Below are positions 4,483-24,068 of a DNA stretch of 64,000 bases, piece after piece. Every line of letters begins with the position of its first letter. Positions within the stretch are counted from its first letter, which is position 1. Origin of the DNA: Bacilli bacterium (GTDB taxonomy: Bacteria > Bacillota_I > Bacilli_A > RFN20 > CAG-826); the NCBI GenBank assembly GCA_049419605.1, contig JBMSKF010000005.1:58-64057 (forward strand), read 5' to 3'. The notes under the pieces were generated by a model. That model worked only from the letters and a program-made list of their open reading frames with translations, made no database searches and was not told where the DNA came from. The translations under genes were made by a program, and so were the position numbers.

Positions 4483-4547
4483 CTAGCATCAACAATATAA
4501 GTAGGGAAAATTGTTCGCTATCTATCATCATGAAAGGAAATTTATTG

Positions 4548-7136
4548 ATGAAACATTATTGGAAAGGCCTATCCATTACGTTAGCAGCCCTCGTGTTAGC
4601 AGCGTGTGGAACCCCAAGTTCAAGTAGCCAAACGAGTTCCACAAGTACGAGTACTTTATCCTCGATTACGATTGCTGGAGCAAATGATGTTACCTTAGAA
4701 TTTGATGTCGATTTTAACTTTTTAACTGGCGTTACTGCTACTGGTAATAACGGCCAAGATTTTACATCGAGTATTACACTCTCTTCGATTTCTACCGCGG
4801 TTAATACTACAACGGGTGTTTTAGACACCACAAGAACTGGTGTTCATACCGTTCAATATCGTGTCCAATCTGGCACGATTGTTGCAACTAAATTTAGAAA
4901 TGTTACCGTTCAACAACCTCAATCCACAGGCGGTATGTTATTAAATCCAGACTTTGCTTTGGGTACTGCTGGTTGGACGGATCCAAGTGTTGTCTATAAC
5001 GAAAGTGGATCAAGTATTGACTTCGATATTGAAGATGGTGCATTAAAAGTAGTGGTTGTGGCAAGTCCTGTTGCCTATGCTCCACGCTTTGGACAAATGA
5101 ATGTACCCTTTGAAATCGACACCACATATGAAGTAAGCTTTAGAGCAAAATCCAGCGTAGTTAAACCCATTAACTTAAATGCTGGTGAATTATTATCCTC
5201 TGCTCCTTGGTTTGTTGACTTCAAACCTGGTCAACCAGAAATTAGAACGATTGGAACCGAATGGGCAACTTATTCCTATATCTTTACTCACCGTCTTGAT
5301 AACAAGCGTGGTGGTATTTTATTTGAATTAGGAACAGTCAGTGGTCAAAAAGTGGATGCCACGATGTACTTTGATGACATCACGATTGAAGAAGCAACTG
5401 CAGGTCCAGATGTGACCGCACCAAACTTCTCTGGTGTTTCTGCCACTGTCAGTGTTTTGGTGGGATCAACCTACGATCCATTAAATGGTGTCACCGCATT
5501 AGACATCGTTGATGGTGACTTAACGGATGAAATTTTAGTGGAAATTCTTGACAGCAATAACGCAGTCGTCAATGCCGTTGATACTTCTGTTCCTGCGGTG
5601 TACACAGTGAATTATTCTGTTGAAGACGCTGCAGGAAATGAAGCAACTGCCCAAACTATTGTCAATGTTGTAAGTTTAGTTTTCAAGAATGAAAACTTAT
5701 TGGCGAATGGTTCATTTGCAGAAGCGGTAGGAAATGAATGGAGTTTCTGGAGCCAAGATTGGGGTACAGCTCCTGTTGTGAATCGTTCGCAAAATGTTGA
5801 AGCTGGCACTTATACTTTAGACATCACCAATGGTGGTGATGCTGCTTGGGCGATTCAAATGAATCACGTCGGTGCTGAATTGGTTCAAGGTCAAACTTAC
5901 CGTTTATCATTCACAGGTTCCTCGACCGTTGCAAGAAAATTCTCAGCAGCGTTTGATACAGGGGCCCCAAACTATGATAACTATGCGCGTAAAAATGGAT
6001 TTGAATTAGGGACAACGAGTTCTACTGTTGATCACATTTTTACCGTAACCAAAGCTACTGGCATCATTCGTTTAACCATTGAATTTGGTTCACAAGATGG
6101 ATTTGCAAACGGTATCGTGACGTTATCTGAAGTTCGTTTACAACGATTAGATGCTTCTCCATTAATTAGTGATTCCAAATTTGCGATGTCTGGCTGGCGT
6201 CATTTCGTTAATGACTGGGATGGCACGGTTGCCACTTCCGGAATCGTCGCTGGCGAATATAAAATGACCATTACAAAGACTGTTGCCTTAAGTCCAACTG
6301 CAGATAATTGGAAATTACAAATTATCCAAGATAATGTTGCCTTCGGCGAAACTGTTGATGATGGTCGTATGAATTTAACAGCGGAAAAATCTTATACCTT
6401 AAGTTTTGACATGTATGCCTCACAAAACATTAATGTCACCACATTTATTGGTGCCCCTGGTGTTTGGGTTAACTATGTTCCAGAAGCAAACCGTGTCAAC
6501 GCAGTCACCACAAGTAAACAAACCATTACGATTCCTGTGAGTACGGTTGGGGCAACCTTAAATGGTAAGGAAAAAATTTCCTTTGAATTTGGTTCTTCCT
6601 TCTCGAACTTTGAATCCGGAAATGAATTTGTTGCGATTGATAATGTGGTCTTAAAAGAAGGTAACACCGTTTTACCAAACATCATTAACGGTGATATGAA
6701 CGCTATTTTAGGCGGACACACCTTCTTTACAGAAAATGGTGGTGCGATGACAAGAGGCGCCAATGGTGGTGCTTCTATTGAAGTTCCTGCTTTAGGCGGC
6801 GCTGCTTATCAACCTCATTATTACTATATTTTCCCAACGCTTGCCAAAGGTAAATATGAAGTGAAGATCGCATTAACCAGTTCGGTGACTCGTGATTTAC
6901 GCTTTAATATTATTCTTCCTGATGCGGGTTATGCTTCGATCCTTCCTGAAAACTTTGTTGATTTCCGCGTCACTGCAGATACCCCTTATGTCTTTACCGT
7001 TTCGTTCGAAGTGGTCAATCCATTAACGAATGTGAAACTTGAATTAGATCTAGGGACACTTGGTGGTGATAAGGTTTCCTTACCAGGAACTTTCTTAATT
7101 TCAGAAGTACTCGTCTACGCAAATTACAATAGCTAA
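4548..7136 (+). CDS. Surface lipoprotein with two Ig-like (DUF5011-type) modules and four CBM4/9/22-like beta-sandwich modules; glycan-binding protein
   Basis: Lipobox LAAC-GTPSSSS followed by a Ser/Thr linker. There are four roughly 155-aa repeats, each starting with a N(P/G)xF..GW-type motif and ending FDDITIEE / LSEVRLQ / IDNVVLKE / ISEVLVY. The DVTAP...DIVDGDLTD module is Ig-like. The ATG at 4548 has an AAAGGAAA RBS; the track start at 4530 does not. Confidence 0.65.
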   Translation: MKHYWKGLSITLAALVLAACGTPSSSSQTSSTSTSTLSSITIAGANDVTLEFDVDFNFLTGVTATGNNGQDFTSSITLSSISTAVNTTTGVLDTTRTGVHTVQYRVQSGTIVATKFRNVTVQQPQSTGGMLLNPDFALGTAGWTDPSVVYNESGSSIDFDIEDGALKVVVVASPVAYAPRFGQMNVPFEIDTTYEVSFRAKSSVVKPINLNAGELLSSAPWFVDFKPGQPEIRTIGTEWATYSYIFTHRLDNKRGGILFELGTVSGQKVDATMYFDDITIEEATAGPDVTAPNFSGVSATVSVLVGSTYDPLNGVTALDIVDGDLTDEILVEILDSNNAVVNAVDTSVPAVYTVNYSVEDAAGNEATAQTIVNVVSLVFKNENLLANGSFAEAVGNEWSFWSQDWGTAPVVNRSQNVEAGTYTLDITNGGDAAWAIQMNHVGAELVQGQTYRLSFTGSSTVARKFSAAFDTGAPNYDNYARKNGFELGTTSSTVDHIFTVTKATGIIRLTIEFGSQDGFANGIVTLSEVRLQRLDASPLISDSKFAMSGWRHFVNDWDGTVATSGIVAGEYKMTITKTVALSPTADNWKLQIIQDNVAFGETVDDGRMNLTAEKSYTLSFDMYASQNINVTTFIGAPGVWVNYVPEANRVNAVTTSKQTITIPVSTVGATLNGKEKISFEFGSSFSNFESGNEFVAIDNVVLKEGNTVLPNIINGDMNAILGGHTFFTENGGAMTRGANGGASIEVPALGGAAYQPHYYYIFPTLAKGKYEVKIALTSSVTRDLRFNIILPDAGYASILPENFVDFRVTADTPYVFTVSFEVVNPLTNVKLELDLGTLGGDKVSLPGTFLISEVLVYANYNS

Positions 7137-7151
7137 AGGAGGCTTAGGATA

Positions 7152-8612
7152 GTGAAACATAAAGCTAAACTATCCGTTGTAGCCTTGTTTGTCCTTGCTG
7201 GATGTGGGGGAACCCCATCCAGTAGTGGCAACACTACAACGAGTGAAACGTTACAACCTGTAACGTTGTCTTATGCAGATTGGGGTAATCAAGAACTCAA
7301 TCAACGCATGATTGATTTATTTGAAGCAAAGTATCCGCATATTACGGTCGAACTTCGACAAGATATTGTGGGTGCAGGTTCACAATTTACAGGCAACCTC
7401 GTCACTGCCGCTCAAGCTGGATTACTCCCTGACGTTTTTGCAACCGATAACGTCCCTACCGTTATCAATGCTGGTTTAACGTTGGATGTGGCTCAGTACT
7501 GGGATGCTGATGAAGATGCTCAGTTAGTCTATGACAATATTGCGCTTGCCGGAGTTTATAACGGCAAACGTTATGCCGTTCCGTCATTCCAATTCTTAAA
7601 AGGGATTTTAATTAATCTCAATATTTTTGAACGCGCCAACTTGCAAACCGTTCCAGGAAAGTATCGTATTGATAATGATGGGTATCCTGTAAAGGATTGG
7701 ACATTTGAAGAATTTGTGAATATTGCAAAAGACATTAAAAACTTTGATTTAGTGAATACCGAAAATTTAGTTGTTGGGATGGACACGTGGTATGGATCAC
7801 CTGATTTCCAACAAGTGTGGCCAATGATGCAAAATGCTGAAACCCAATACGATACATGGGATGGTGAACAATTTCATTACACCTCCGCAGATTGGATCAG
7901 TGCGATGCAAGCTAAAGTTGCCCTTCATCAATTAACCGATGGCACGACCACACGTTTTACACCAGAAGATTATGATGCCGAAGATAATGACGAATTAAGA
8001 ACGTATATGATTCAAACCGGTTATGCGGCGATGGACATTGAAGGTTCTTGGCAATTCTGGGTCATTAAAGATGCAATCGATAATCGTGATTTTGAATTAG
8101 GTTTCTGGCCTTATCCACAAGGTGATGCTGGATTATTCCCTCCTACCATTTTAGATTTCCAAGCCGTTTCATCTCAAACTGAGCATCCAGAAGAAGCTTA
8201 CTTACTAGCCAAATGGATGACATTTGGTCAAGATGGCTGGAATGCTCGTTTATCATTATTAGAAGAAGATCGTGAAGAAGCAATCGCGGAAGGGTTAACG
8301 CCTGATTTCTTAGACCGTTTCCCAATTGCGGATTATCCTGATGTTTGGACACGAGTCGAAGGCCTTGTAGAAGGAATTGAAGGGATCGATGCAATTTTTG
8401 ATCGTATTCAATATTCAAAACCAGACTTAGACAAATGGTTACCAGGTTATAAAGATTTCTGGGCATGGGTATACACGCCTGAAAATCCATTTAACTTTGA
8501 TAACTTAGTCGCCGAAGGACCCAATGCAGTGCCAACTTATGCAGCCGCATGGGAAGCACAAATTAATATGCTCGTAGCAGAACAACTTGCTGCCTTAGGT
8601 GCAAGTCAATAA
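7152..8612 (+). CDS. CUT1-type ABC sugar substrate-binding lipoprotein
   Basis: GTG start 9 nt after an AAGGAGG RBS. Lipobox LAGC-GGTPSSSG. At 486 aa it matches the size and composition of family-1 extracellular solute-binding proteins. Confidence 0.8.
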   Translation: MKHKAKLSVVALFVLAGCGGTPSSSGNTTTSETLQPVTLSYADWGNQELNQRMIDLFEAKYPHITVELRQDIVGAGSQFTGNLVTAAQAGLLPDVFATDNVPTVINAGLTLDVAQYWDADEDAQLVYDNIALAGVYNGKRYAVPSFQFLKGILINLNIFERANLQTVPGKYRIDNDGYPVKDWTFEEFVNIAKDIKNFDLVNTENLVVGMDTWYGSPDFQQVWPMMQNAETQYDTWDGEQFHYTSADWISAMQAKVALHQLTDGTTTRFTPEDYDAEDNDELRTYMIQTGYAAMDIEGSWQFWVIKDAIDNRDFELGFWPYPQGDAGLFPPTILDFQAVSSQTEHPEEAYLLAKWMTFGQDGWNARLSLLEEDREEAIAEGLTPDFLDRFPIADYPDVWTRVEGLVEGIEGIDAIFDRIQYSKPDLDKWLPGYKDFWAWVYTPENPFNFDNLVAEGPNAVPTYAAAWEAQINMLVAEQLAALGASQ

Positions 8613-11600: not shown

Positions 11601-11685
11601 TTACACCTTCCAAGGTGAAATTTTACGACCGTATCCTGTGCCGACGATTGATAATATAGATTGGTGGTTGACTCAACATGCTTAA
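8659..11685 (+). CDS. TM-anchored giant extracellular protein: N-terminal TM, CBM-like beta-sandwich regions, a helical region and a C-terminal family-1 solute-binding-protein domain
   Basis: The ATG at 8659 ([12 protein letters not shown]...) lies after the hairpin. TM segment [22 protein letters not shown]6/35-like pattern is present ([12 protein letters not shown]...VYINGE...INTISLEA). From about nt 10411 the protein becomes SBP-like ([22 protein letters not shown]...PDVAVGV...). The stop overlaps the next permease start by 8 nt. Confidence 0.6.
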
Positions 11686-12574
11686 TCGATTATTAGATCG
11701 GATGAATCGCCCTGCTTGGTTTATTTTCCCTTATTGGTTTTTGTTTGCAGTCTTCATTGTGGTACCTGTTGTCGCTGCAATTGGATTATCCTTCACGTTC
11801 TTTAATTCCATACAAACTCCAACCTTTATTGGCATTACAAACTATATTGAATTAATTACTTTAGACACTGTCTTTATGCGATACGTATTACCCAACACCT
11901 TGCGTTTTGCATTTATTGTGGGACCAGTTGGGTATGCATTGTCCTTTATGGTTGCATGGATGTTATCCCACTTACCGAAAAGACCAAGAACGATTTTAGC
12001 AATCATCTTTTATTCACCTTCTTTAACTGCAGGGGTTGCTATGGCAGCGATGTGGCGCATTATCTTTTCTGGAGATGCTCAAGGTTACTTGAATGCGATT
12101 ATGTTGGATTTAGGTTTGATTGTAGAACCGATTCAATTTTTACAAAATCCTGATATGCTCATGACCATTATGATTGTGGTGTCATTATGGAGTTCCATCG
12201 GGGTTGGTTTCTTAGCCATGCTTGCCGGGATTTTAAACGTTGATCGTACACTATATGAAGCGGCTTATATTGATGGCATCAAAAATTGGTTCCAAGAAAT
12301 TATTTATGTCACCATCCCAGCGATGAAGCCACAAATGATTTTTGGTGCAGTCATGGCTGTCGTGGGTACTTTCCAAGCAGGTGCAATTGGTGTTGCTTTG
12401 TCGGGAACCAATCCTACGCCAAATTATGCCGGTCAATTGATTGTAAATCACATTGAAGACTTTGGTTTCATTCGTTACATGATGGGTTACGCGGCGAGTA
12501 TTTCCGTCATTCTATTGTTGATGGTGTATGCGATTTCTAAGGTAACGTGGAAGTTTTTAGGAGAAAAAGATTAA
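11678..12574 (+). CDS. ABC sugar transporter permease (MalF/LplB-type)
   Basis: 298 aa with six predicted TM segments. An EAA-like loop is present ([27 protein letters not shown]). Confidence 0.85.
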
Positions 12575-13452
12575 TGGCCTCAAAATTTTTAGGAACACAA
12601 ATTAATCCGGACCGTTTCCATAAAGGACAACTTCCTTTTTTCATTATTCTCATTTCATTTTCTGTCTTGATGATCTTACCGATTTTATTTATCATCAATC
12701 ACGCCTTTAAACCACAGTCAGAACTCTTTGCCTATCCTCCTGCATTTTTTGTAAAAAATCCAACCCTTGATAACTTTATTGAACTCGCTAGACTTGTTTC
12801 AACATCAGGCGTTCCTTTTTCTCGTTATGTTTTAAATAGTTTGTTCATCACGGGTATCGGCGTTGGCTTGGCAATTTTATTTACCGCTTTATCCGCTTAT
12901 GGTTTAGCCAAATTGCATTTTAAAGGAAAGAAATTATTATTTGAAATCAATACGATTTCTTTAATGTTTGTGCCAATCGCGGTGCAAATTCCTCGTTATA
13001 TTGTGGTGGCCCAATCAGGAATGATTGATACCTATTTCGCTCATATTTTCCCGCTAATTACCATGCCTGTCGCTATGTTTTTAATCAAACAATTCATCGA
13101 TCAAATTCCTAATGATTTTATTGAAGCCGCGCGTATTGATGGGGCTAGTGAGATGCAAATATTCTTTAAAGTCATCATGCCGATGATTGCTCCAGCAGTT
13201 GCCACTGTTGGTATTCTTGCTTTCCAATTAATTTGGAATGATACCTCCACTTCAACCTTATTTATTAATGACGAAAGTTTAAGAACGTTAGCATTTTTCT
13301 TACAAACTTTAACTTCAGGAGTTGGTAATACCATTGCTGGACAAGGAATGGCGGCTGCGGCATCGTTATTAATGTTTATTCCTAATTTAGTCTTGTTTGT
13401 CATCTTACAAAGTCAAGTGATGTCCACGATGGCGCACTCGGGGTTGAAGTAA
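12574..13452 (+). CDS. ABC sugar transporter permease (MalG/LplC-type)
   Basis: EAA loop FIEAARIDGASEMQIFFKVIMPMIAP. The ATG at 12574 is preceded by GGAGAAAAAG; the track's GVG-type extension from 12547 overlaps the upstream gene. Confidence 0.85.
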   Translation: MASKFLGTQINPDRFHKGQLPFFIILISFSVLMILPILFIINHAFKPQSELFAYPPAFFVKNPTLDNFIELARLVSTSGVPFSRYVLNSLFITGIGVGLAILFTALSAYGLAKLHFKGKKLLFEINTISLMFVPIAVQIPRYIVVAQSGMIDTYFAHIFPLITMPVAMFLIKQFIDQIPNDFIEAARIDGASEMQIFFKVIMPMIAPAVATVGILAFQLIWNDTSTSTLFINDESLRTLAFFLQTLTSGVGNTIAGQGMAAAASLLMFIPNLVLFVILQSQVMSTMAHSGLK

Positions 13453-13453: not shown

Positions 13454-15496
13454 ATGAAACGCTGGTTATATCTAGTTCTTTTTGCAAACTTAGGTTTGTT
13501 ATTACCGCAAAGAACGGTAGTACCCACGCTTGCAGATAATGGATTGCCCTATCAAACTTACACTTATGCAAGTTCACGGCAACAACTTATCCAAACCCAA
13601 GATGCATATTTACCGTTATCTCTTGCAACGCAACTTGGTGATTTCACCCTATCATCACCCCAAGATGTTTACGTGGATTCACAAGATATTATCTATGTTG
13701 CTGATAAAGGTAGAAAATCCATCATCAAATATAATTTGCAAAATGATGAAGCGATTGAAATTGGTTTAGGTATACTCAACGAACCAACAGGTGTCCATGT
13801 TGATGAATTAGGTTCGATTTATGTGGCAGACTTTGCCAATAAAAAAGCTTATCAGTTCATCAATGATGACGGGGAATATAGGGTACAAACCGAGTATCAA
13901 AAACCTCTTAATTCACCTTTCTTTGGTGAAGAAGATCCCTTTGATCCTACCAAAGTTGTCACCGATCGAGGCGGCAACGTCTATGTTTTACTTGCCGGTA
14001 ACGTGAACGGTCTTGCTCAGTTTAAAAATAATGGTGAATTCTTTGGTTATTTCGGTGGCAATCGAATTCCAGCCACAATTGCAAACACCATTCGTTCGCT
14101 ATTGTTTGATGAAGAAACAAGACGTAACTTTTTCCAAATCATTCCTAAGCCTGTTTATAACCTTAGTATTGATCAAAGTGGTTTAATTTTAACCTCTACC
14201 AAAGACCAAGATGGATACTTAAAACTCAACATTGCTAACGTCATCTATAATCAATCGGTTTGGGGTTTTAATACAGTTGAAGATATTGCGGTTGGTCCGT
14301 ATAACACGATTTATACGTTAACCTCTGAAGGTTATATCGTTGAGTATGATCCTAATGGTTCCGTGCTATTTTTATTTTCAGGTCCGGACGCCATTGGGCA
14401 AAAAGGATTATTTAAACGAGCCAAAGGGATCGCGATTGATTCCCGAAATAATTTATATGCAGTTGATGAAGCAACTGGCGCACTCCAAATTTTTATTCCA
14501 ACCGAATTTGCAAATTTAGTTCATGATGCTATCGATTTATACTTTGATGGAAAATATGCCGAATCTTTGGTCCCTTGGCAAAACGTCTTAAAAATGAATC
14601 GGCTTTTTGACCTTGCAAATCAAGGATTGGGTGACGCTTATTTTGCTTTACAAGATTATGAATCTGCCTTAACTTACTATCGATTAGCGAGAGATACTAG
14701 AGGTTATTCCAATGCTTACTGGGAAGTTCGAAACCAATTCCTGTTAGTCAATGGCAATGCTTTCGTCGTTTTCTTAATGATACTTATCGCTTTCTATGTG
14801 GTTCGCAAATTCATTCCTGGCTATGTTTGGGTGCAAACGCAAATCCATAATTTAAAACAAAAAACCACGCTTCCTAATTGGATTAAAGAACTCCAATTTC
14901 CTTTCCAAGTGTTTGCCAAACCGGTTGATGGATATGATGATATCAAACGTCATCAAACCTTTAGCAACCGCAGTGCGCTTATTTATTTAATCGCATTCTT
15001 TGTCGCGTATTTAATTTGGATATACGAAACCAACTTTTTATTTAACGGTTTAATCTCTTCTGAAATTAATATAGTTGAACAAGTGATTGGTGTCTTTGTT
15101 CCATTTGGTTTGTGGGTTGTTAGTAACTACTTAGTTTGTTCCATACGAGATGGCGATGGTAAATTATCGGAAGTATTTCAAGCATCAGCCTTAACATTAT
15201 TGCCAATGATTATCACCTTCCCAATTCTGACGATCATTTCGCATGGGTTAACGGCAAATGAAAGCTTTATTTATGATTTGATATATGGCATTGGTGTGAG
15301 CTTTACCGTGATATATATGTTTATCATGGTGAAAGAAATTCATTTCTATGACATCAAACCGACGTTTAAAAACATTCTCATCACGATCTTTACTGCCATT
15401 ATGTTACTTGCTTTAACCTTAATTATTGTCTTCTTGCTTGGAGAAGTTTATCAATTGATCGCCGATATCATTCAGGAGGTGAATAGCCGTGTTTAA
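13454..15496 (+). CDS. Fusion membrane protein: signal peptide, NHL-like beta-propeller, TPR-like helices, then a polytopic Yip1-like domain
   Basis: Repeated blades occur at aa ~60-350: IYVADKGRKSIIKY, IYVADFANKKAYQF, VYVLLAGNVNGLAQF, LYAVDEATGALQIF. A TPR-like stretch GDAYFALQDYESALTYYRLA follows. A TM sits at aa ~428-450, then five more TM segments in a Yip1-like region (FQVFAKPVDGYDDIKRH...). Confidence 0.6.
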   Translation: MKRWLYLVLFANLGLLLPQRTVVPTLADNGLPYQTYTYASSRQQLIQTQDAYLPLSLATQLGDFTLSSPQDVYVDSQDIIYVADKGRKSIIKYNLQNDEAIEIGLGILNEPTGVHVDELGSIYVADFANKKAYQFINDDGEYRVQTEYQKPLNSPFFGEEDPFDPTKVVTDRGGNVYVLLAGNVNGLAQFKNNGEFFGYFGGNRIPATIANTIRSLLFDEETRRNFFQIIPKPVYNLSIDQSGLILTSTKDQDGYLKLNIANVIYNQSVWGFNTVEDIAVGPYNTIYTLTSEGYIVEYDPNGSVLFLFSGPDAIGQKGLFKRAKGIAIDSRNNLYAVDEATGALQIFIPTEFANLVHDAIDLYFDGKYAESLVPWQNVLKMNRLFDLANQGLGDAYFALQDYESALTYYRLARDTRGYSNAYWEVRNQFLLVNGNAFVVFLMILIAFYVVRKFIPGYVWVQTQIHNLKQKTTLPNWIKELQFPFQVFAKPVDGYDDIKRHQTFSNRSALIYLIAFFVAYLIWIYETNFLFNGLISSEINIVEQVIGVFVPFGLWVVSNYLVCSIRDGDGKLSEVFQASALTLLPMIITFPILTIISHGLTANESFIYDLIYGIGVSFTVIYMFIMVKEIHFYDIKPTFKNILITIFTAIMLLALTLIIVFLLGEVYQLIADIIQEVNSRV

Positions 15497-17855
15497 ACTT
15501 TCACGATTCATCATTCCGATGATTGTATTACCCGTATTAATTGTGACAACCCAAGAGGATCCAACATTAATGGTTGCTCCTCGTGTTGATAATTTTGCTT
15601 TTATTGAAAACCAATTATTGAGTAGTTCAAGATACACGCAAGTAGATGAACAAAATGCGGCTGTTTTAAACCGTTTCGAAGATGACTTTCACTTACAATA
15701 TAGCGAAGAACAACTTGATATTCTTGGTTATGAGTTAATGTTAGAAAATAACAACCTTAATCTTTATTTTGAAAAAGATTCTTTTTCATTGTTGCTTGAG
15801 GATAAGGCAACTGGTTATATGTTATCTTCGCGTCCAGAATTCCAAGGGTATTCTGAAACCAGAGAAGATAACACAGCGAATCGTAATCAAATGAATTCAG
15901 GTTTATGGATTGAATCAATCCGAACCAATAATATTAGTAGCAGTGCAATTAAAGTAGAATCGTTGTACACCATTGCAGATGTAAGTTATCAAACGAATGG
16001 TTCGCAGGATTTAACCAACATTGATTGGACAAGACCTTATTTAATTGAGGCGAATAGTTATCAACGTAGTCGAGTACAAGTCACCACTTCATCTATTAAT
16101 GAAACAAGTTTTAAATCCACGATTCAGATTACAAACTATGGTTTTAGTTTTGACATCACCATTGGCTTAGAATCGAATGGATTTTCTGTTCGTTTTAATC
16201 CAACAACTATCCAAGAAAATAATGATCAATATCGCTTACTTGGATTACAATTTTTCCCATATTTTGGTTCTGCTCGTGAGGATATTTATCCCGGTTATGT
16301 TGTCATTCCAGATGGCGTTGGTGCATTAGTCAGAACCAATCAACGTTTTGATAAAACCTATCAATCTGATTATTATGGTTCAGATTTAGGTTATCTAAGA
16401 AACTCGGTTGCCTCGTTATCCCTTCCTATTTATGGCATGATTCATCAAGTCAATCGTATTGGTTTTTATCATGACATAGTTGAGGGTGCAGAACATGCAA
16501 CCTTATTAGCGAATTTCTGGGGTAGAAACACTCGTTATCATCGCATCACAAATCGATATAACGTTCGACGTATTTATCGAAATATCATTAATCGTGCTGG
16601 TGATGGTCAAGATGTTATTCCTACAGAAATGATTACGCAACCTTATGAAGGGGTTTACCGTATTTTAAAAGAAGACCAAGCTAATTACGTTGGCGTGGCA
16701 AAATCTTATCAAAATGAATTAGCAACTCGGCAAGCTATTCAAGCATTAGAAAACACAGAAACACCGATTCAACTTGCCATGCTAATTCACGAACAAGAAC
16801 CTACTTTTTTTGGCACATCACGATTAACCATGACTTCAATGGATGATGTTCAACGCATGCGAGATGAACTCAATGAACAAGGTATTGATGAGCAGCTTAT
16901 CGTCTTAAAAGGATGGTCTGGCGATGGGTATGCTTACCGCCAACCATACTATTTTAATTTACCCGATCGTCAAGGATTATTAGATGTGATTGCAGACGTC
17001 AACGAAGATGGCCAGCATCTATTCCTTGAACAGGACTATCTTGTGAGTAGTGAACTTTCTCGCCGAGTTGAATTTAATCGCGATGTCGCACGAAATTACT
17101 CTAAATTAAAAATGAGTTATCGTCTCAATCGCTTGGATAATCAACCGATTAATGAGTATTATCTTTACCCAACCATCGCTCAAGAAAAACTAGCAAATGA
17201 TATCGCAGTGATAGATGACTTAGGGGCAAGCGGATTTGCATTCCCTCATCTTGGTCAAACCTTATTTAGCTATTATGATGATCAACGAATCAACCGTTCT
17301 GAAACTTTACAAATTGTGACCGATATGGCTGCATCATTAAACCGCTCAGCGATGAATCGGCCATCTGCCTACATGTTCCCGTATGTCAGTCATTATTTAG
17401 AAATGCCAATCACAAATAGTCAGCTGGATTTATTTACTGACTTAGTGCCACTTGTTCCTTATGTGTTAAAAGGGTATGTGCCCACCTTCACACCTTATTT
17501 AAACTTTAATGCTTTAGGAAAAGAACGACTACTCCAAATGATTGATTTTGCAGTGAATCCAAGTTATTTATTAACCGATCAACCAAGTAGCGCGCTTCGT
17601 TATACTTATAGCAATAAATACTTCACCACCGCTTATAGTGATTTCAAAGATGACATCCAAGATGTGTATCAATATATTGCAACTGCATTAAATCCGGTGT
17701 TGGGAACTACGGTCGCTGAACGAACGATGGTACAAACCGGGGTTAGTCGCATTGTCTATGATAATGGCGTCACCTTATATATTAATTACCGTTCTACACC
17801 TGTTACCGTTGATCAACTGACGATTGCGGCATTAGACTATGAGGTTGTGTTATGA
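15489..17855 (+). CDS. N-terminally TM-anchored 788-aa extracytoplasmic protein, DUF5696-like (function unknown; possible glycoside-hydrolase-like fold)
   Basis: GTG start 7 nt after an AGGAGGTG RBS, overlapping the upstream stop by 8 nt. It has a single N-terminal TM (FIIPMIVLPVLIVTT). Motifs GYVVIPDGVGALV and LKGWSGDGY are present. I recognise no named catalytic signature. Confidence 0.4.
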   Translation: MFKLSRFIIPMIVLPVLIVTTQEDPTLMVAPRVDNFAFIENQLLSSSRYTQVDEQNAAVLNRFEDDFHLQYSEEQLDILGYELMLENNNLNLYFEKDSFSLLLEDKATGYMLSSRPEFQGYSETREDNTANRNQMNSGLWIESIRTNNISSSAIKVESLYTIADVSYQTNGSQDLTNIDWTRPYLIEANSYQRSRVQVTTSSINETSFKSTIQITNYGFSFDITIGLESNGFSVRFNPTTIQENNDQYRLLGLQFFPYFGSAREDIYPGYVVIPDGVGALVRTNQRFDKTYQSDYYGSDLGYLRNSVASLSLPIYGMIHQVNRIGFYHDIVEGAEHATLLANFWGRNTRYHRITNRYNVRRIYRNIINRAGDGQDVIPTEMITQPYEGVYRILKEDQANYVGVAKSYQNELATRQAIQALENTETPIQLAMLIHEQEPTFFGTSRLTMTSMDDVQRMRDELNEQGIDEQLIVLKGWSGDGYAYRQPYYFNLPDRQGLLDVIADVNEDGQHLFLEQDYLVSSELSRRVEFNRDVARNYSKLKMSYRLNRLDNQPINEYYLYPTIAQEKLANDIAVIDDLGASGFAFPHLGQTLFSYYDDQRINRSETLQIVTDMAASLNRSAMNRPSAYMFPYVSHYLEMPITNSQLDLFTDLVPLVPYVLKGYVPTFTPYLNFNALGKERLLQMIDFAVNPSYLLTDQPSSALRYTYSNKYFTTAYSDFKDDIQDVYQYIATALNPVLGTTVAERTMVQTGVSRIVYDNGVTLYINYRSTPVTVDQLTIAALDYEVVL

Positions 17856-18919
17856 AGACAAAAAGACCTTCTATTTTTAAACAATTCTTAACGCGTCTTT
17901 TGAATTTGATGGAATCAATGAGTCAATTTTACCAAGCTAAGATTCAACCTCCCTTAGACCGTTTTGTTTATCGCTTAAAACATAATTTTATTTATCGAGA
18001 AATCGGTAATACAGTGAAAATATTTTCCTTAATCACCATTCGTATTACAAGAAAACGTCGGCATGCATTTTATGGCTATCTATTTATTTTGATATGGTTA
18101 ATTGGGATTGCGATTTTTACCTTATATCCCTTAGGATATTCATTTTATTTAAGTTTTCATGAAGCCTATTACAACTTACAAGAAGGCGTTATTACCACAT
18201 TCATCGGCTTCACGAATTATGTCAACATATTCAGAAGTCAAACCCTTGTGCCTGCTTATAGCAATTATTTAGGAAGAATGGTGGTTGCGGTTCCCATCAT
18301 CATTGTCTTTTCAATCATCATTGCCGTCCTCGTCAATATGCCAATCAAGACCAAAAGTTTGTGGCGAACTGTTTTCTTTTTACCGGTGATTATTTCAACG
18401 GGTCCTGTCATCAATGAATTGAATGCTCAAAGTGCGATTACTTTACCCAATTTACAGGCGAGCGGAATCTATAGTTATATCGTCAATAATTTACCAAGCT
18501 TTTTAGCAGATCCTTTAACCACTGTCATTAATTCCATGCTTTTAATCCTATGGTATGCAGGGATTCCTATCCTCATTTATTTAGCAGGATTACAAAAAAT
18601 TGATCCGAGTTTATATGAAGCCGCCAGTATGGATGGCGCCTCACCTTGGATGCGTTTTTGGAAAATTACCTTACCATCATTAATGCCGTTTACCGGTATT
18701 TCCATTGTCTATGTTGTGGTATCGATGTCCTTATTTGTTGAACCAGGTGGCATATTAGATTTAACAAGGACCCACATGTTAGTGGGGGCTCCTGATTCTG
18801 CATTCTGGTTTGGATATGGATATGCAGCAGCGATGGCGTGGGTATATTTCATTTGTATGGTCTTATTGATTCTAGTTTTTACAAGTCTTACCCGAGAAAA
18901 AAGAGGTAAAGTAAAATGA
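17852..18919 (+). CDS. ABC sugar transporter permease with a long N-terminal extension (LplB-like)
   Basis: ATGA start/stop overlap with the upstream gene. EAA loop LYEAASMDGASPWMRFWKITLPSLMP. 355 aa. Confidence 0.85.
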   Translation: MKTKRPSIFKQFLTRLLNLMESMSQFYQAKIQPPLDRFVYRLKHNFIYREIGNTVKIFSLITIRITRKRRHAFYGYLFILIWLIGIAIFTLYPLGYSFYLSFHEAYYNLQEGVITTFIGFTNYVNIFRSQTLVPAYSNYLGRMVVAVPIIIVFSIIIAVLVNMPIKTKSLWRTVFFLPVIISTGPVINELNAQSAITLPNLQASGIYSYIVNNLPSFLADPLTTVINSMLLILWYAGIPILIYLAGLQKIDPSLYEAASMDGASPWMRFWKITLPSLMPFTGISIVYVVVSMSLFVEPGGILDLTRTHMLVGAPDSAFWFGYGYAAAMAWVYFICMVLLILVFTSLTREKRGKVK

Positions 18920-19854
18920 AACTTTCCTCACTCATTTCAGTCTCCCAACAACAAAAAATGAAAAAAGTTTGGTTAGGAAAAACCTTAACTGATGGTTTGC
19001 TATACAAGGTTGTGATTTATTTATTGTTGATTAGTTTTAGTTATATTTATTTATATCCTCTGTTATTTATGTTGATCAACAGTTTAAAATCTGTTGATGA
19101 TTTGATTAATCCTGGTGTGCAATGGATTCCCACCGTCTTAAAGTGGGAAAACTATGAACGCGCCTTTCAAGTTTTAAGTTTGCCAAACTCGTTGATTGAT
19201 TCAACCGTCTATGTTTTAAAGGTCAGTGTCAGTGCGACTTTATCGAGTGCTTTAATTGGTTATGGTTTTGCTCGATTTGATTTCCCTTTTAAACGCTTAT
19301 TCTTTGCAATTATGTTAGCGACCTTTATTCTCCCTCAACAAGTGACCATGGTTGCGAATATGCTTATCTTTAGAGAATTAGAAATCATTTCAACTGAATG
19401 GGCGATGCTGTTACCAGCGATGACAGGGCAAGGTATCAATGCTGCAATTTACATTTTGATTTTTTACACATTCTATCGAACGATTCCAGGCATCCTCATT
19501 GAATCTGCAGAAGTGGATGGGGCTGGTCAATTAAGAATTTTCCGAACCATCATCCTGCCTTTAGCGATACCTTCTTTTGTCATCGTTTTCTTATTTAGTT
19601 TTGTTTGGTATTGGAATGAATCCTTTATTACCGGCTTATATGTAGGTGATAAGGTGACCTTGCCTTTATGGTTACAAGCTTTTAGAGCTTCGTATGAAAC
19701 AATTTTCCCACCTGGTACACCCGGAGCAGAACTAAATGAAGCCATTTTACTTTCAGGAAATATGTTGACGATATTACCTTTACTTTTACTGTATTTCTTT
19801 GGTCAAAAATTATTTACGCAAAGTATCGATAAAACGGGAATCACTGGAGAATAG
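18916..19854 (+). CDS. ABC sugar transporter permease (LplC-like)
   Basis: ATGA overlap with the upstream gene. EAA loop ESAEVDGAGQLRIFRTIILPLAIP. 312 aa. Confidence 0.85.
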   Translation: MKLSSLISVSQQQKMKKVWLGKTLTDGLLYKVVIYLLLISFSYIYLYPLLFMLINSLKSVDDLINPGVQWIPTVLKWENYERAFQVLSLPNSLIDSTVYVLKVSVSATLSSALIGYGFARFDFPFKRLFFAIMLATFILPQQVTMVANMLIFRELEIISTEWAMLLPAMTGQGINAAIYILIFYTFYRTIPGILIESAEVDGAGQLRIFRTIILPLAIPSFVIVFLFSFVWYWNESFITGLYVGDKVTLPLWLQAFRASYETIFPPGTPGAELNEAILLSGNMLTILPLLLLYFFGQKLFTQSIDKTGITGE

Positions 19855-19855
19855 T

Positions 19856-21007
19856 ATGAAAAAAATATGGCCTTTAACATTCTTAATCGTGACCGTCACG
19901 TCTTGTGTCAATCCAAGTGTAAGCTCATCCTCATCAAGTGGTGTTCCTAATGGAAGGTTACCATTAACCCCTGTGGAAGGTTGTGGAGTACAAACGATTG
20001 ATAACCAATGGGTATGTACATGGACTGATGAATTTAATGGAGATGATCTAAATTCTGATCATTGGAATATTGAAGTGAATGGCGATGGTGGTGGTAACCA
20101 AGAAGCTCAATACTACCGCAGTGAAAATATCTCAGTCAGTGATGGCACTTTAAAAATTACAGCTAAAAAAGAAAATTATTTAGGGAAGCAATATACCAGT
20201 GGTCGAATTAATTCCCGTTATAAAGTGAATCCTCAATTTGGTCGAGTAACGTTTCGCGCCAAAATGCCTGCAGGAAGAGGAACTTGGGCAGCAGTATGGA
20301 TGTTACCGTTGTTCAATCGCTTTGGACAATGGCCTAATAGTGGTGAAATCGATATCTTAGAATATGTCGGTTATGACCCAGGCACCGTTTTTTCGGCAAC
20401 GCATACGACTAAATTCAATCATACAAAAAATAACAATCCCAGTGCCTCTAGAGTATTAGTCGATCCTGAAAATCAATTCTATGAATATGAAATGATTTGG
20501 TTACCAGGAGAAATTAGGATGTTTGTGGAAGGCAATCCTTATGGTACCTATCGATATGTTCCACAATTTAATCAAGACGTCCCTTATGATGATGTATTTC
20601 CATTTCAAGAAGAATTTTATTTCATCATTAATCTTGCGGTTGGTGGTAGTTGGGGTGGAGTTCAAGGCATTGATCCGCTTGCCTTTCCTACTGTATTTGA
20701 AATCGATTATTTACGCATATATGAATGGGATTATGCCAATCATGATCTCACACCACCTGAAAAACCAACAGCCCTCGCAACTTCGCAACTCGAGAATACC
20801 ATTCATTGGAATCGCCCAAATGATGACACATGGGTTAGCCATTACGCGATTTATTTAGATGGTGTGAAATATCGCGAAGCAAAAATTAATCAATTTACAT
20901 TCGTTGGACTTGAAGAACGGAGTTACCAAGTTCAAGTTGAAGCGATTGATTTTGTTGGTAGAACTTCACCCTTATCCGATGCTATTACCTTTAACTTTGG
21001 AGGGTAA
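19856..21007 (+). CDS. Surface lipoprotein GH16 endo-beta-1,3-glucanase (laminarinase) with a C-terminal FN3-like domain
   Basis: The ATG at 19856 follows a GGAGAA RBS. Lipobox VTSC plus a poly-Ser linker. GH16 catalytic motif WPNSGEIDILE. The C-terminal roughly 90 aa (PPEKPTALATSQLENTIHWNRP...YQVQVEAID) is FN3-like. Confidence 0.85.
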   Translation: MKKIWPLTFLIVTVTSCVNPSVSSSSSSGVPNGRLPLTPVEGCGVQTIDNQWVCTWTDEFNGDDLNSDHWNIEVNGDGGGNQEAQYYRSENISVSDGTLKITAKKENYLGKQYTSGRINSRYKVNPQFGRVTFRAKMPAGRGTWAAVWMLPLFNRFGQWPNSGEIDILEYVGYDPGTVFSATHTTKFNHTKNNNPSASRVLVDPENQFYEYEMIWLPGEIRMFVEGNPYGTYRYVPQFNQDVPYDDVFPFQEEFYFIINLAVGGSWGGVQGIDPLAFPTVFEIDYLRIYEWDYANHDLTPPEKPTALATSQLENTIHWNRPNDDTWVSHYAIYLDGVKYREAKINQFTFVGLEERSYQVQVEAIDFVGRTSPLSDAITFNFGG

Positions 21008-21011
21008 ACTC

Positions 21012-21728
21012 ATGCTCAAACCACATCAAAAACTTGTCTTTAAAGAAACGTTTCAATCTTTGAATCGTGATGTTTGGAATTTAGAAGTAGGTGAAAAATG
21101 GTTTAACGATGAACGACAATGTTATGTGGATTCACCCAAAAACCTCCAGATCACTCCACAGGGCTTACGAATTATTGCCGATATCAATCCTGCTGAAAAA
21201 AAGTGTCGATATCAATCCATTCGTTTAAATACAAAAGATAAAAAAGAATGGCAGTATGGAACGTTTATTGCTCGCGCCAAACTTCCTCATGGAAAAGGTT
21301 CCTGGCCCGCAATTTGGTTATTAGGTCACGATATTGGAACTGTAAAGTGGCCATTGTGTGGTGAGATTGACTTATTAGAAATGGTGGGACATGATCCAGA
21401 AGTTTTACATTTTAGTTTGCATTCACAGTTACATAATCACATTATTAAAACGCAACGGACGAAGTTTCAAAAAATTCCTGGCATCATGGAAGGTTTTCAT
21501 GATTATAAAATGATTTGGCGTCCCGAAGGCATTAGTTTTTTTATTGATGATATTCATTATGTAACCTTTGAGAAGAAACCAAATGATCCAATTGAAAGTT
21601 GGCCTTTTGACAAACCCTATTATCTGCTCATTAATATTGCGGTTGGAGGTACTTGGGGTGGAAAAATTGAAGAACAAGACATGCCATATGTGATGGATGT
21701 TGAAAAAATTGAGGTGTATCAAGAATGA
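21012..21728 (+). CDS. Cytosolic GH16 beta-glucanase paralog
   Basis: The ATG at 21012 lies 8 nt after a GGAGGG RBS. There is no signal peptide. GH16 motif WPLCGEIDLLE is present, and the domain ends INIAVGGTWGG. Confidence 0.8.
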   Translation: MLKPHQKLVFKETFQSLNRDVWNLEVGEKWFNDERQCYVDSPKNLQITPQGLRIIADINPAEKKCRYQSIRLNTKDKKEWQYGTFIARAKLPHGKGSWPAIWLLGHDIGTVKWPLCGEIDLLEMVGHDPEVLHFSLHSQLHNHIIKTQRTKFQKIPGIMEGFHDYKMIWRPEGISFFIDDIHYVTFEKKPNDPIESWPFDKPYYLLINIAVGGTWGGKIEEQDMPYVMDVEKIEVYQE

Positions 21729-23047
21729 AAGTCATTGTCAGTACTGCTTCAGGAGCTCGCTGGGCAAATCAACCTGTGACACTCTCAAAGGTGCCGATGG
21801 GGACAAGTTTAACTTTAAATCCTAACCAAACCTATCAAACCCATCTTGGATTTGGTGGTTCCCTTACTGAATCAGCGGCCTACACGATCAAAGAAAACCA
21901 TGATGAAGCCACCGTGCAAAACTTATTGGATTTATATTTTTCCAAAGATGGATTAGATTATCACTTTACTCGTATCCATATGAATTCCAGTGATTTCGCC
22001 TTAGGAAATTATACTTACGTTGAATATGGTGATAAGACATTATCAACTTTTTCTATCGCCAGAGAATCTTGGTATGTCTTACCGATGTTAAAAAAGATTT
22101 TAGCCAAACAAAAAGATTTAAAAATTTTGATTTCACCTTGGTCGCCTCCAGGATGGATGAAAGATAATTTACAAATGAATCATGGCGGGGTCTTAAAACC
22201 AGAATTCCATTCATTATGGGCACAATACTACATCAAGTTTATTCAAGCATTGCAACAAGAAGGCATTCAACCCTGGGGTGTCACCGTACAAAATGAACCT
22301 GCTGCTAAACAAGTTTGGGACTCATGCTTATACACACCTGAACAAGAACGAGACTTTATTAAATTACATTTAGGTCCACTATTGCAAAAATATTTTCATG
22401 ATCAAATTAAACTTCTTGTATGGGACCATAATCGGGATATCATGGTTGAAAGAGTTACACCCATCTATGCTGATCCCAAAGCCAGTCAATTTGTTTGGGG
22501 GACAGCCTTCCATTGGTATGGAGAAGAAAAGTTTGAGAATGTCGGTAAAACAAAAGCATTGTTTCCGGATAAACATTTATTGTTCACAGAAGGTTGCATC
22601 GAAGGAGGTCCTCGACCAGGATCTTGGGATACCGGAGAACGATATGCCCGTAATATTATCGGAGATTTTTTACAAGGGAATGAAGGATTCATCGACTGGA
22701 ATTTAGTGTTAAACGAACAAGGGGGTCCTAATCATGTTGGAAATTATTGTGATGCCCCTATTTTATTTGATCGCCGATCTCAAACTGTGATTAAAAATAG
22801 TTCCTATTATGTGATTGGTCATTTTTCAAAATTTATTCCACCTCAATCCAAGCGCATCCAATTCATTGGAAAACTTCCTGATGGCATGCTTGGTGTTGCT
22901 TATCAAACCCCTGAACAAAACAATGTGATGGTCTTATTAAACACCACCACGCTTCCTCAAGTTTTTTCGATGGAAATTCAAGGAACTTGGCAAACCTTTA
23001 CTTTAGAGGCGAAAGCGATTGCCACGATCATCAAAGATGAAAAGTAA
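21725..23047 (+). CDS. GH30 family glycosidase (glucosylceramidase/beta-1,6-glucosidase-like), cytosolic
   Basis: FGGSLTESAAY, VTVQNEP (acid/base Glu) and LLFTEGC (nucleophile Glu). 440 aa with no signal peptide. Confidence 0.8.
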   Translation: MKVIVSTASGARWANQPVTLSKVPMGTSLTLNPNQTYQTHLGFGGSLTESAAYTIKENHDEATVQNLLDLYFSKDGLDYHFTRIHMNSSDFALGNYTYVEYGDKTLSTFSIARESWYVLPMLKKILAKQKDLKILISPWSPPGWMKDNLQMNHGGVLKPEFHSLWAQYYIKFIQALQQEGIQPWGVTVQNEPAAKQVWDSCLYTPEQERDFIKLHLGPLLQKYFHDQIKLLVWDHNRDIMVERVTPIYADPKASQFVWGTAFHWYGEEKFENVGKTKALFPDKHLLFTEGCIEGGPRPGSWDTGERYARNIIGDFLQGNEGFIDWNLVLNEQGGPNHVGNYCDAPILFDRRSQTVIKNSSYYVIGHFSKFIPPQSKRIQFIGKLPDGMLGVAYQTPEQNNVMVLLNTTTLPQVFSMEIQGTWQTFTLEAKAIATIIKDEK

Positions 23048-24068
23048 ATTACGTAAACTTACCATTCATCAATTAGCTGCAGATCTTTCGTTATCTCCAG
23101 GAACCGTCAGTAAAATTCTCAATGATAAAGGTAGTGTCACTGAAGAAACTAGAAATCGGGTGCTAGCGCGGGCAAAAGCATTAGGATATGTTGCAAGCCA
23201 TTCTGCAAGAATCTTAAAGGCAGAGCACACATGGACTATTGGCGTTGTCTTTTCAGACATTGCTTCATTCGGTTTGGAACATCCTTTCTTTGGATCGATT
23301 ATTCAAGCTTTTAAAAACCTCATTGAAGATAAGGGTTACGAAATTGTGTTTATTCCTAAAAAAATAGGTGCGCAAGAACAAACCTATTTACAATGGGCTT
23401 TAAATAAAAGTGTGGATGGTGTTTTGTTATTAACCGGCGACATCAACGCTTCTGATATTCAAGAATTAATCCGCGCTGATATTCCATGTGTATCCGTTGA
23501 CATGGTGGATCCTTTACTTGCCACGGTGATTAGTGATGATTTTCAAGGCATTGAACTTATTTTTAAACACTTTTTACAGCTTGGATTTCAACGGATTTTT
23601 GCTTTTTCTGGATCGACGTTATCGAGAGCCTATCAACAACGAACCGAAGCCTTTGAAAAATTAACCTTACAATTTAAAACAGATCGCGCTAAGGAATTTT
23701 ATTTTTCTACTGATAAATATGGCGTCAAGCATTATTACGAACAAGCACTTCTATGGATTCAAAGTTGGCAAGTCAAACCACAAGCGATTATTGCGTTTTC
23801 TGATGATATTGCGATGGGACTGATTATGGCGTTACAAGAATTAGGTTATCGCGTTCCTGAAGATATTTCCGTATCTGGATATGATGATATTCAATTTGCA
23901 GGTTTGTTTTCCCCACCATTAACGACCATTCGCCAAGATAAAAAAAGGATTGCAGAAACCGCAGCCTTAAAATTATTGTCGATGATTGAGTCTGACGATC
24001 AAACCAAGGGACTTACGAAAGTTCCTGTACAACTCATCGTTCGTCATTCCACTAAACGGATCAAATAA
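23037..24068 (+). CDS. LacI-family transcriptional regulator
   Basis: N-terminal HTH LTIHQLAADLSLSPGTVSKILN followed by a periplasmic-binding-protein-like sugar-binding core. It is the last gene of the operon. The ATG at 23037 is preferred over the TTG at 23019. Confidence 0.85.
   Translation: MKSKLRKLTIHQLAADLSLSPGTVSKILNDKGSVTEETRNRVLARAKALGYVASHSARILKAEHTWTIGVVFSDIASFGLEHPFFGSIIQAFKNLIEDKGYEIVFIPKKIGAQEQTYLQWALNKSVDGVLLLTGDINASDIQELIRADIPCVSVDMVDPLLATVISDDFQGIELIFKHFLQLGFQRIFAFSGSTLSRAYQQRTEAFEKLTLQFKTDRAKEFYFSTDKYGVKHYYEQALLWIQSWQVKPQAIIAFSDDIAMGLIMALQELGYRVPEDISVSGYDDIQFAGLFSPPLTTIRQDKKRIAETAALKLLSMIESDDQTKGLTKVPVQLIVRHSTKRIK

Follow-up and report, generated by a model that had tools for sequence, protein, structure and literature searches.

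A predicted NHL-TPR-Yip1 membrane protein is encoded at a fixed position within a putative beta-glucan ABC-uptake cassette

What would a protein that joins an NHL-type beta-propeller to a Yip1-type membrane domain be doing among the permease genes of a sugar importer? The question is raised by gene 13454..15496 of a 64,000-nucleotide (nt) stretch (hereafter the window) of contig JBMSKF010000005.1, from the Bacilli bacterium assembly GCA_049419605.1. We propose, at a rough probability of 0.5, that its product is a fixed and dedicated component of a beta-glucan ATP-binding cassette (ABC) uptake cassette, in which it would serve as a non-catalytic accessory or scaffold subunit contacting the permeases. 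That the protein is functionally dedicated to this cassette is much more certain than the reading as a whole, and much less certainty attaches to the specific contacts. The domain architecture, the predicted topology, the size of the family, the invariant synteny with its gene overlap and the context of beta-glucan enzymes are directly supported, and are taken in turn below.

The ATG-started open reading frame (ORF) on the plus strand encodes 680 amino acids (aa). Translation, Pfam and AlphaFold2 (AF2) bore out both the ORF and the domain layout of the original prediction, whose limits for the propeller (13631-14503) and for the Yip1 region (14891-15448) lie close to those returned by the tools (Table 1). 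When the two domain assignments were checked with hidden Markov models (HMMs) they were upheld, the window protein scoring 54.6 bits for NHL against a Pfam cut-off of 20, and 31.0 bits for Yip1 (PF04893) against 28.6, with aa 484-656 aligned on positions 1-172 of the 173-position profile. Among 35 diverse members, which are 24-58% identical to the window protein, NHL was detected in 28 and Yip1 matched in all 35 at E<=1e-3 (best E-value 1.4e-15). A family profile and the AF2 model, the latter with a predicted local distance difference test score (pLDDT) of 85.2 and a predicted template-modelling score (pTM) of 0.72, were both built from an alignment of 61 family members.

The N-terminus is signal-like, with a putative cleavage site, and contains no lipobox Cys; AF2 models a helix at aa 2-16 followed by a low-confidence or disordered linker (17-30), and hydrophobic N-termini are kept in distant homologs. 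Beyond it, the family profile matched NHL domains of PknD, Pizza and TRIM proteins in the PDB at E-values of 1e-80 to 1e-23 (scores to designed repeats being inflated by the repeats themselves), and the PknD structure 1rwi at 2.9e-34. Propeller strands occupy aa 35-349 of the model, mostly at pLDDT 80-96, and Foldseek matched them to TRIM71, Lin41, Thin, the PknD-derived Pizza6 and PknD itself at E-values of 1e-15 to 1e-11, with template-modelling scores on the target, TM(target), of 0.74-0.82 (0.74-0.76 for PknD, 1rwl/1rwi). Strands and fold matches together describe a closed, six-bladed propeller.

Since some propellers of this general kind are enzymes, such as SMP30/gluconolactonase, PAL and the Vgb lyase, one may also consider that the domain acts as a sugar lactonase or lyase on glucan or oxidised oligosaccharides at the cell surface. 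This would fit JGI annotations such as 'sugar lactone lactonase YvrE', Pfam SGL matches in 10 of the 35 relatives, and the presence of PAL and Vgb lyase at lower rank in the Foldseek list, but NHL scores are far above the SGL scores, and PAL and Vgb align at only 10-12% identity with TM(target) of 0.61-0.65. Moreover, no invariant or near-invariant His, Glu or Cys is present in aa 31-350 across the 61 aligned sequences, and the conserved Asp residues occupy structural NHL positions; the conserved metal-binding or catalytic set of His, Glu, Asn and Asp expected of such enzymes is absent, as judged from the alignment and not from superposed active sites. A catalytic propeller was therefore dropped as the leading idea, the conserved catalytic residues not having been found, and we regard it as distinctly improbable. 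The propeller is most likely non-catalytic, its best fold matches being binding-type NHL domains, and it may bind a ligand.

A helical insert interrupts the propeller, modelled in blocks of pLDDT 53-66 with helices at aa 209-217 and 220-226. Directly ahead of it, strand 196-200 carries the motif FFG(Y/F)FGGN, and G194, F196 and N203 are invariant; identity to the window protein over aa 190-235 is 69% in close relatives and 27% in distant ones. The insert may represent a candidate partner-binding surface. After the propeller come two helical hairpins, for which the original prediction of a TPR-like linker holds at the level of the family: the profile matched consensus TPR proteins of the PDB at aa 352-407, TPR_16 matched 12 of the 35 relatives at E<=1e-3, AF2 places four helices across aa 351-412, and this segment is the best conserved one in distant members (domain identity 0.40). 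The window protein itself, on the other hand, falls short of the Pfam gathering scores, with 19.3 bits against 32.7 for TPR_16 and about 17 against 27-28 for TPR_1 and TPR_2, all at aa 359-414, and 'TPR-like, two repeats' is the safe description.

From aa 415 through 679 the model consists of helices. The first, continuous over 415-453, holds a juxtamembrane motif in which S419, W423 and R426 are invariant and a first transmembrane (TM) segment, TM1, placed by hydropathy at aa 429-447. A basic linker follows, in which P490 is invariant and which is the worst-conserved segment in distant members (identity 0.17). The five TM helices that had been predicted for the Yip1 region are correct by both hydropathy (peaks at 508-526, 544-562, 577-595, 608-626 and 641-659) and AF2, and with the additional anchor helix TM1 in front of them there are six in all after the ectodomain. 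Conserved stretches are found in the cytoplasmic loop after TM3 (NYLVxSIxDGEG, aa 558-569), in the outward loop after TM4 (SxxLTxNExF, 596-605) and on the cytoplasmic side after TM5 (KEIHxY, 627-632), and in the C-terminal helix E675 is invariant and R679 nearly so. Conservation is spread over all domains and both membrane faces (outside GYSxAxWExRN, LTxNE and E675; inside DGEG, KEIHxY and P490). When the family profile was searched against the PDB no solved Yip1 relative was found, and with the whole model Foldseek returned lists dominated by propeller matches, with no comparator for the Yip1 part.

The distribution of Lys and Arg residues gives these segments an orientation. There are nine of them in the linker (452-505), two in loop 563-576 and three in loop 627-640, all predicted to be cytoplasmic, and none in the predicted outward loops 527-543 and 596-607. 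Because of this positive-inside pattern and the signal-like N-terminus the propeller is predicted to lie outside, as the original prediction had it, together with the TPR-like hairpins; the linker would be cytoplasmic and the Yip1 bundle would end outside. A cytoplasmic segment, five TM helices and a C-terminus on the opposite side is also the layout of the Yip1 family.

The bundle had further been thought of as a channel-like unit, and it might indeed be a channel or transporter, since it is polytopic and several conserved polar residues lie in or close to the membrane (N558, D566, E603, E628 and H630). These residues, however, fall in loops and not in the middle of helices, the cassette already contains two complete permease pairs and two binding proteins, and we know of no transport activity for any Yip1-family protein. 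As nothing in the data points to a channel-like unit, such a role is disfavoured and we hold it to be highly improbable.

A sensory role deserves mention as well, in which the propeller would detect extracellular beta-glucan and the cytoplasmic loops would signal to a shared ABC ATPase or to a LacI-type regulator. Among bacterial proteins, the propeller finds its closest structural relative in PknD from Mycobacterium tuberculosis, whose extracellular sensor domain, presumed to detect a ligand, is likewise a six-bladed propeller outside the membrane that is tethered by a TM helix. In addition, the loops DGEG and KEIHxY are conserved, and the locus has no ATPase of its own, so that ATPase recruitment could be regulated. 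In PknD, however, the propeller sits on a cytoplasmic Ser/Thr kinase, whereas the window protein joins it to TPR hairpins and a Yip1 bundle and has no output domain that could be recognised; what lies in the cytoplasm is the poorly conserved linker of 55 aa and two short loops. The position of the gene in mid-operon and its translational coupling (see below) suggest a structural subunit, and LacI-type regulators, which are present in most loci, already explain induction; a sensor or regulator thus seems improbable.

The protein is not peculiar to one genome and belongs to a widespread family of about 670 aa. Full-length homologs of about 677-680 aa and up to 92% identity come from freshwater metagenome-assembled genomes (MAGs) labelled 'Bacilli/Bacillota', from Acholeplasmataceae and from 'Tenericutes'. 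Searching 1.84 billion representative proteins, clustered at 50% identity, with TM1 and the Yip1 region (aa 420-680) gave 1266 clusters at E<=1e-3 and at least 639 at E<=1e-10. Among the best 150 clusters listed, 103 are at least 600 aa long with the match at the C-terminus, and most of those listed are about 670 aa; several short matches start only in the TPR or juxtamembrane region, as truncated gene calls would. A second search, with a seed whose Yip1 region is 25% identical to that of the window protein, gave named proteins of diverse origin (Cohnella, Paenibacillus, Fictibacillus, Alteribacter, Caldibacillus, Caloramator, Mahella, [Clostridium] ultunense, Marinitoga aeolica, Roseilinea and other Anaerolineae), most of which NCBI names 'YIP1 family protein', and a scan of one genome per GTDB species yielded at least 536 stretches encoding relatives. 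Judged by sequence, the NHL-TPR-Yip1 fusion is the normal state of a large, catalogued and uncharacterised family.

Gene neighbourhoods were compared in 89 contexts. Eighty-two of these (L001-L082) comprise two loci from a contig look-up and 80 from the genome scan, their ORFs being assigned by BLASTP to the window proteins; the scan loci were seeded with closer relatives and over-represent Acholeplasmatales, Izemoplasmatales and related Bacilli MAGs, and distant phyla were sampled by seven targeted look-ups. In all 82 loci, wherever the contig reaches and down to 39% identity of the NHL-Yip1 protein, order and strand are identical: CBM4_9 lipoprotein, 486-aa solute-binding protein (SBP), SBP of about 1000 aa, permeases A1 and A2, NHL-Yip1, DUF5696, permeases B1 and B2, and GH16. 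In the seven distant loci, from Paenibacillaceae WGS1546, Marinitoga aeolica (Thermotogota), Roseilinea (Chloroflexota), Fictibacillus enclensis, Mahella and two metagenome contigs, an eight-gene core is found that consists of an SBP, a big SBP, two permeases, NHL-Yip1, DUF5696 and two permeases. Contexts with the cassette thereby span Acholeplasmatales, Izemoplasmatales, Paenibacillaceae, Fictibacillus, Mahella, Marinitoga and Roseilinea, that is, at least four bacterial phyla including Bacillota (with the wall-less Acholeplasmatales), Thermotogota and Chloroflexota. The NHL-Yip1/DUF5696 pair lies between the two permease pairs in all 89 contexts, as far as the contigs extend, and never elsewhere, and the Yip1-type protein is always in one operon with membrane subunits of an ABC transporter, so that its link with sugar transporter genes and DUF5696, far from being random, holds throughout.

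The junctions are equally regular. The upstream permease gene ends at 13452, leaving one base before the ATG of the NHL-TPR-Yip1 gene, and the corresponding junction measures -4 to +1 nt in 72 of 73 loci. At the other end the DUF5696 gene begins with a GTG at 15489, within the final 8 nt of the ORF, with an AGGAGG at 15474-15479 ahead of it; this GTG with its 8-nt overlap recurs in 72 of 78 related loci and was also called in five of the seven distant ones (Paenibacillaceae, Marinitoga, Roseilinea, Fictibacillus and Mahella), the remaining two having overlaps of 4 and 17 nt. The gene had originally been placed between two permease pairs with junctions of 1 and 8 nt, and while the junctions are as described, its immediate downstream neighbour is DUF5696, after which the second permease pair follows. 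Scans for promoters and terminators gave counts no higher than the shuffle expectation and no notable internal signal.

This overlap also speaks for a narrower explanation, namely that the protein serves DUF5696 alone, as the membrane partner of this ecto-enzyme, the two forming a surface glucan-processing heterodimer in which propeller and TPR hairpins hold or regulate a GH129-like enzyme and the Yip1 bundle anchors it, while the permeases are pathway neighbours outside the complex. The conserved overlap and the upstream ribosome-binding site imply coupled, near-equimolar synthesis of these two proteins, each has a membrane anchor and outward domains, the DUF5696 model shows a glycosidase-like fold, and TPR and NHL domains are typical protein-protein interaction modules. 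Against this, the pair sits between the two permease pairs in every context, the junction with the upstream permease gene is just as tight, and an anchor of six TM helices with conserved cytoplasmic loops exceeds what anchoring would need, given that DUF5696 has an anchor of its own. We therefore consider this possibility a serious one but doubtful, and retain the permease-contacting accessory subunit as the preferred reading.

The DUF5696 protein begins with a TM-like segment (aa 1-19) that forms its N-terminal membrane anchor. A sequence search against the PDB gave no match; its AF2 model (pLDDT 78.8, pTM 0.82) was matched by Foldseek to the GH129 structure 5opq (E-value 1e-29; TMq 0.59 and TMt 0.69 on query and target, respectively), followed by NagBb (5wzq), GH101, GH36 and GH31, with 9-12% identity to the GH129/GH101 matches. 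Its invariant acidic residues include D479, within GWSxDG, and D532. On the strength of the model it is a candidate new glycoside hydrolase family with putative activity, sharing the overall multi-domain fold of GH129/GH101 hydrolases; the catalytic residues are likewise putative. Known GH129 and GH101 enzymes act on alpha-linked N-acetylgalactosamine or anhydrogalactose, and such alpha-glycosidase fold relatives contrast oddly with the beta-glucan loci in which DUF5696 is found.

The transporter part of the cassette is that of a CUT1-type carbohydrate importer, with the expected set of an SBP, a MalF-like and a MalG-like permease present twice. Permease pair A is syntenic in all loci. Pairs A and B share about 25% identity over the aligned stretches, for which reason a recent tandem duplication was rejected, and they appear to be two old, distinct translocators. 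SBP_bac_1 is found at the orthologous position of the 486-aa SBP in other phyla, and a giant anchored SBP of 931-1019 aa keeps its own place in the order in every phylum examined. The window's version of the latter has an N-terminal region of about 550 aa of unknown fold and an SBP domain at aa 600-1000, whose closest PDB match is Lin1841 (5ysb; E-value 4e-11 over aa 600-906).

A MalK/MsmK-type ATPase gene is missing from the 64-kb window, in which no sugar-type ABC ATPase was found and the only LSGG[QE] signatures lie at about 59.9 and 60.7 kb, in ATPases that we take, by their appearance and not from a family search, to be EcfA-type. One distant locus (L089) does carry an ABC_tran/OB_MalK/TOBE_2 gene two genes after the cassette. 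GH161 loci that have no ATPase genes have been discussed before, a shared ATPase encoded elsewhere being the usual explanation (PMC6484121). The same arrangement of MalF/MalG-like pairs and lipoprotein SBPs with no ATPase gene is known from Gram-positive CUT1 importers with a shared ATPase, such as Listeria innocua Lin1841 for beta-1,2-glucooligosaccharide. The cassette goes beyond these systems in having two permease pairs, two SBPs, one of them anchored and of about 1000 aa, and the NHL-TPR-Yip1 and DUF5696 proteins; these two extra anchored proteins were not found in any described CUT1 system in the literature that we looked at.

The flanking enzymes hint at the sugar that is imported. The first gene of the locus encodes a 1010-aa protein that has no Pfam match and aligns over its full length with PDB entries 9qqk and 9h8v at an E-value of about 5e-196, and this GH161 assignment marks the locus as a predicted beta-1,3-glucan (laminarin-type) utilisation operon. 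Downstream, the first GH16 gene stops at 21007 and the second probably starts at an ATG near 21012; if so, both the second GH16 and the GH30 protein (region 20904-23047, plus strand) are without signal peptides. Cytoplasmic endo-type beta-glucanases of families GH16 and GH30, together with GH161, suggest import of oligosaccharides that are fairly long or branched. The flanks of six distant loci (L083-L086, L088 and L089, from Paenibacillaceae, Marinitoga, Roseilinea, Fictibacillus, Mahella and one metagenome contig) do not encode GH16, GH30 or GH161 and carry instead PF10091 'Glycoamylase', GH94, GH3 and GH35/42-type proteins, which we take to be families of beta-1,2-glucan catabolism. The core seems to be reused there for a different glucan, probably a beta-1,2-linked one, so that the cassette would appear to serve soluble beta-glucans in general, with a linkage specificity that the flanking enzymes seem to set.

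Bacterial Yip1 proteins are not, as originally stated, essentially unstudied. According to two reviews (PMC4887032, PMC4338810), YknW of Bacillus subtilis and B. amyloliquefaciens is a Yip1-family fourth component of YknWXYZ, an ABC transporter accessory that modulates assembly of the YknXYZ transporter, and in bacteriocin clusters, too, genes with a Yip1 domain are repeatedly found next to those of ABC transporters (PMC11580447). Compared by description, YknW and the window protein both have a bacterial Yip1-type polytopic domain encoded in an operon with ABC transporter membrane components. YknW, however, is small, has no ectodomain and serves a MacB-type exporter with a membrane-fusion protein in toxin resistance, whereas the window protein has an NHL propeller, TPR hairpins and an extra TM helix and belongs to a MalFG-type carbohydrate importer cassette; its neighbours are BPD_transp_1 importer permeases and SBPs, with no MacB-type exporter or membrane-fusion partner. 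Because the type of partner transporter differs, the protein is not a member of the YknW system, although by analogy it may work like YknW. Eukaryotic Yip1/YIPF proteins (PF04893) share the cytoplasmic N-terminal segment, the five TM helices and the C-terminus on the far side, but they act in ER-Golgi trafficking with Rab/Ypt GTPases and have no extracytoplasmic propeller. Nothing suggests trafficking here: the window protein is a Yip1 member by sequence and fold only, and Rab/Ypt or Yif1 partners would not be expected in bacteria. Nothing was found in the literature on the fused NHL-Yip1 protein, on DUF5696 or on the cassette, and neither NHL nor Yip1 proteins are mentioned in the GH161 paper (PMC6484121), a Paenibacillus JDR-2 transcriptome study or a beta-1,2-glucanase preprint. 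What is known, then, are the domains and a catalogued family, and what is new is a locus for ABC carbohydrate import in which two accessory membrane proteins are invariant and yet unstudied.

How would an accessory subunit of this kind work? The propeller and the two TPR-like hairpins would stand on the outer face of the membrane behind the signal-like N-terminus, TM1 would cross inward to the basic linker of about 55 residues in the cytoplasm, and the five-helix Yip1 bundle, ending outside, would pack in the membrane against one or both of the MalF/MalG-type permease pairs. The propeller/TPR platform could then hold the translationally coupled, anchored DUF5696 enzyme and/or the large anchored SBP, or a glucan chain, whereby glucan capture and processing would be placed beside the translocators. 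Several points weigh against this scenario. Physical contacts, glycan binding and stoichiometry are all inferred, and the topology is a prediction. To our knowledge NHL propellers are not established glycan binders. Gene order alone cannot decide between the permeases, DUF5696 and the binding proteins as the partner, the precedent of YknW concerns a MacB-type exporter with a membrane-fusion protein and not a MalFG-type importer (and a protein with no ectodomain), and the Yip1 score of the window protein is only 2.4 bits above the Pfam cut-off, although its relatives score better.

A more far-reaching version, on balance unlikely, is that the cassette constitutes an undescribed multi-component importer made of two MalFG translocators, a lipoprotein SBP, a giant anchored SBP and a Yip1 organiser whose propeller and TPR hairpins dock DUF5696 and glucan. 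If true, capture, trimming and import of long soluble beta-glucans, such as laminarin and beta-1,2-glucan, would be physically coupled, in a functional counterpart of the Bacteroidota 'utilisome' in bacteria that have no TonB/SusCD, and for the first time a bacterial Yip1 domain would have a defined molecular role in the uptake of nutrients. Soluble beta-glucans, laminarin among them, are a major source of carbon in water and soil, and the uptake of long oligosaccharides by means other than SusCD-type outer-membrane systems is poorly understood. Once the role of the Yip1 subunit is defined, bacterial Yip1 domains would become accessible to functional study, and a new glycoside hydrolase family (DUF5696) and a new ABC importer layout are possible gains. 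Since cultivable carriers exist, among them Haploplasma modicum ATCC 29102, Peloplasma aerotolerans, Paenibacillus thermotolerans, Fictibacillus enclensis and Marinitoga aeolica, the role is directly testable.

Table 1. Coordinates of the genes, protein segments and junction discussed in the text (positions in the window).
Feature	Position	Strand	Basis
GH161 beta-1,3-glucan phosphorylase (predicted), 1010 aa, no signal peptide, first gene of locus	1450..4482	+	PDB 9qqk 'GH161A', 9h8v
Lipoprotein with CBM4_9 and Ig-like domain, 868 aa, lipobox LAAC	4530..7136	+	Pfam, N-terminus
Lipoprotein solute-binding protein, 486 aa, lipobox LAGC	7152..8612	+	N-terminus, weak TIGR03850 match
Large membrane-anchored SBP-like protein, 1028 aa	8599..11685	+	TM aa 36-54, PDB matches, ortholog SBP_bac_1
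Permease pair A, 298 and 301 aa, MalF/UgpA-like and MalG/UgpE-like	11678..13452	+	Pfam BPD_transp_1, NCBIfam UgpA/UgpE/GlcT/GlcU-like
NHL-TPR-Yip1 membrane protein gene, 680 aa plus stop	13454..15496	+	ORF list, Pfam NHL and Yip1 above cut-offs, full-length homologs
Signal-like N-terminus, aa 1-27 (MKR, hydrophobic core, PTLA/D with putative cleavage between A and D)	13454..13534	+	Sequence, AF2
Six-bladed NHL beta-propeller ectodomain (predicted), aa 31-350	13544..14503	+	Pfam, PDB profile matches, AF2, Foldseek
Helical insert within propeller, aa ~203-232, contains LFDEE.RR, preceded by FFGYFGGN	14060..14149	+	AF2, alignment
Two TPR-like helical hairpins, aa 351-414	14504..14695	+	Sub-threshold Pfam TPR, family profile, AF2
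Juxtamembrane motif GYSxA(F/Y)WExRN and TM1, aa 415-451	14696..14806	+	Invariant residues, hydropathy, AF2
K/R-rich linker, predicted cytoplasmic, aa 452-505, N-terminal part of Yip1 profile	14807..14968	+	Sequence, Pfam
Yip1 five-TM bundle, aa 506-661	14969..15436	+	Pfam, hydropathy, AF2, conservation map
C-terminal helix, predicted outside, aa 662-680	15437..15493	+	Alignment, AF2; location from topology argument
Translational-coupling junction: AGGAGG, DUF5696 GTG and 8-nt overlap	15474..15496	+	Sequence; same-offset GTG in 72/78 loci
DUF5696 protein, 788 aa, fixed downstream partner	15489..17855	+	Pfam DUF5696 413 bits, AF2, Foldseek
Permease pair B, 355 and 312 aa, MalF/MalG (UgpA/UgpE)-like	17852..19854	+	Pfam, NCBIfam
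GH16 lipoprotein, second GH16, GH30, LacI-type regulator	19799..24068	+	Pfam, N-termini

Some further features of the window may be recorded. The 868-aa lipoprotein encoded behind GH161 has two CBM4_9 stretches and large parts with no family match, and it is syntenic but fast-evolving (29-75% identical from locus to locus); it may bind glucan at the cell surface or be an enzyme that escaped detection. Just ahead of the locus lies a tRNA gene (1211-1283, minus strand), beside a bidirectional terminator-like hairpin at 1166-1193. Farther along, a flavin mononucleotide (FMN) riboswitch scoring 98.5 bits is found at 36345-36459 on the minus strand, upstream of minus-strand genes at about 34.7-36.3 kb.

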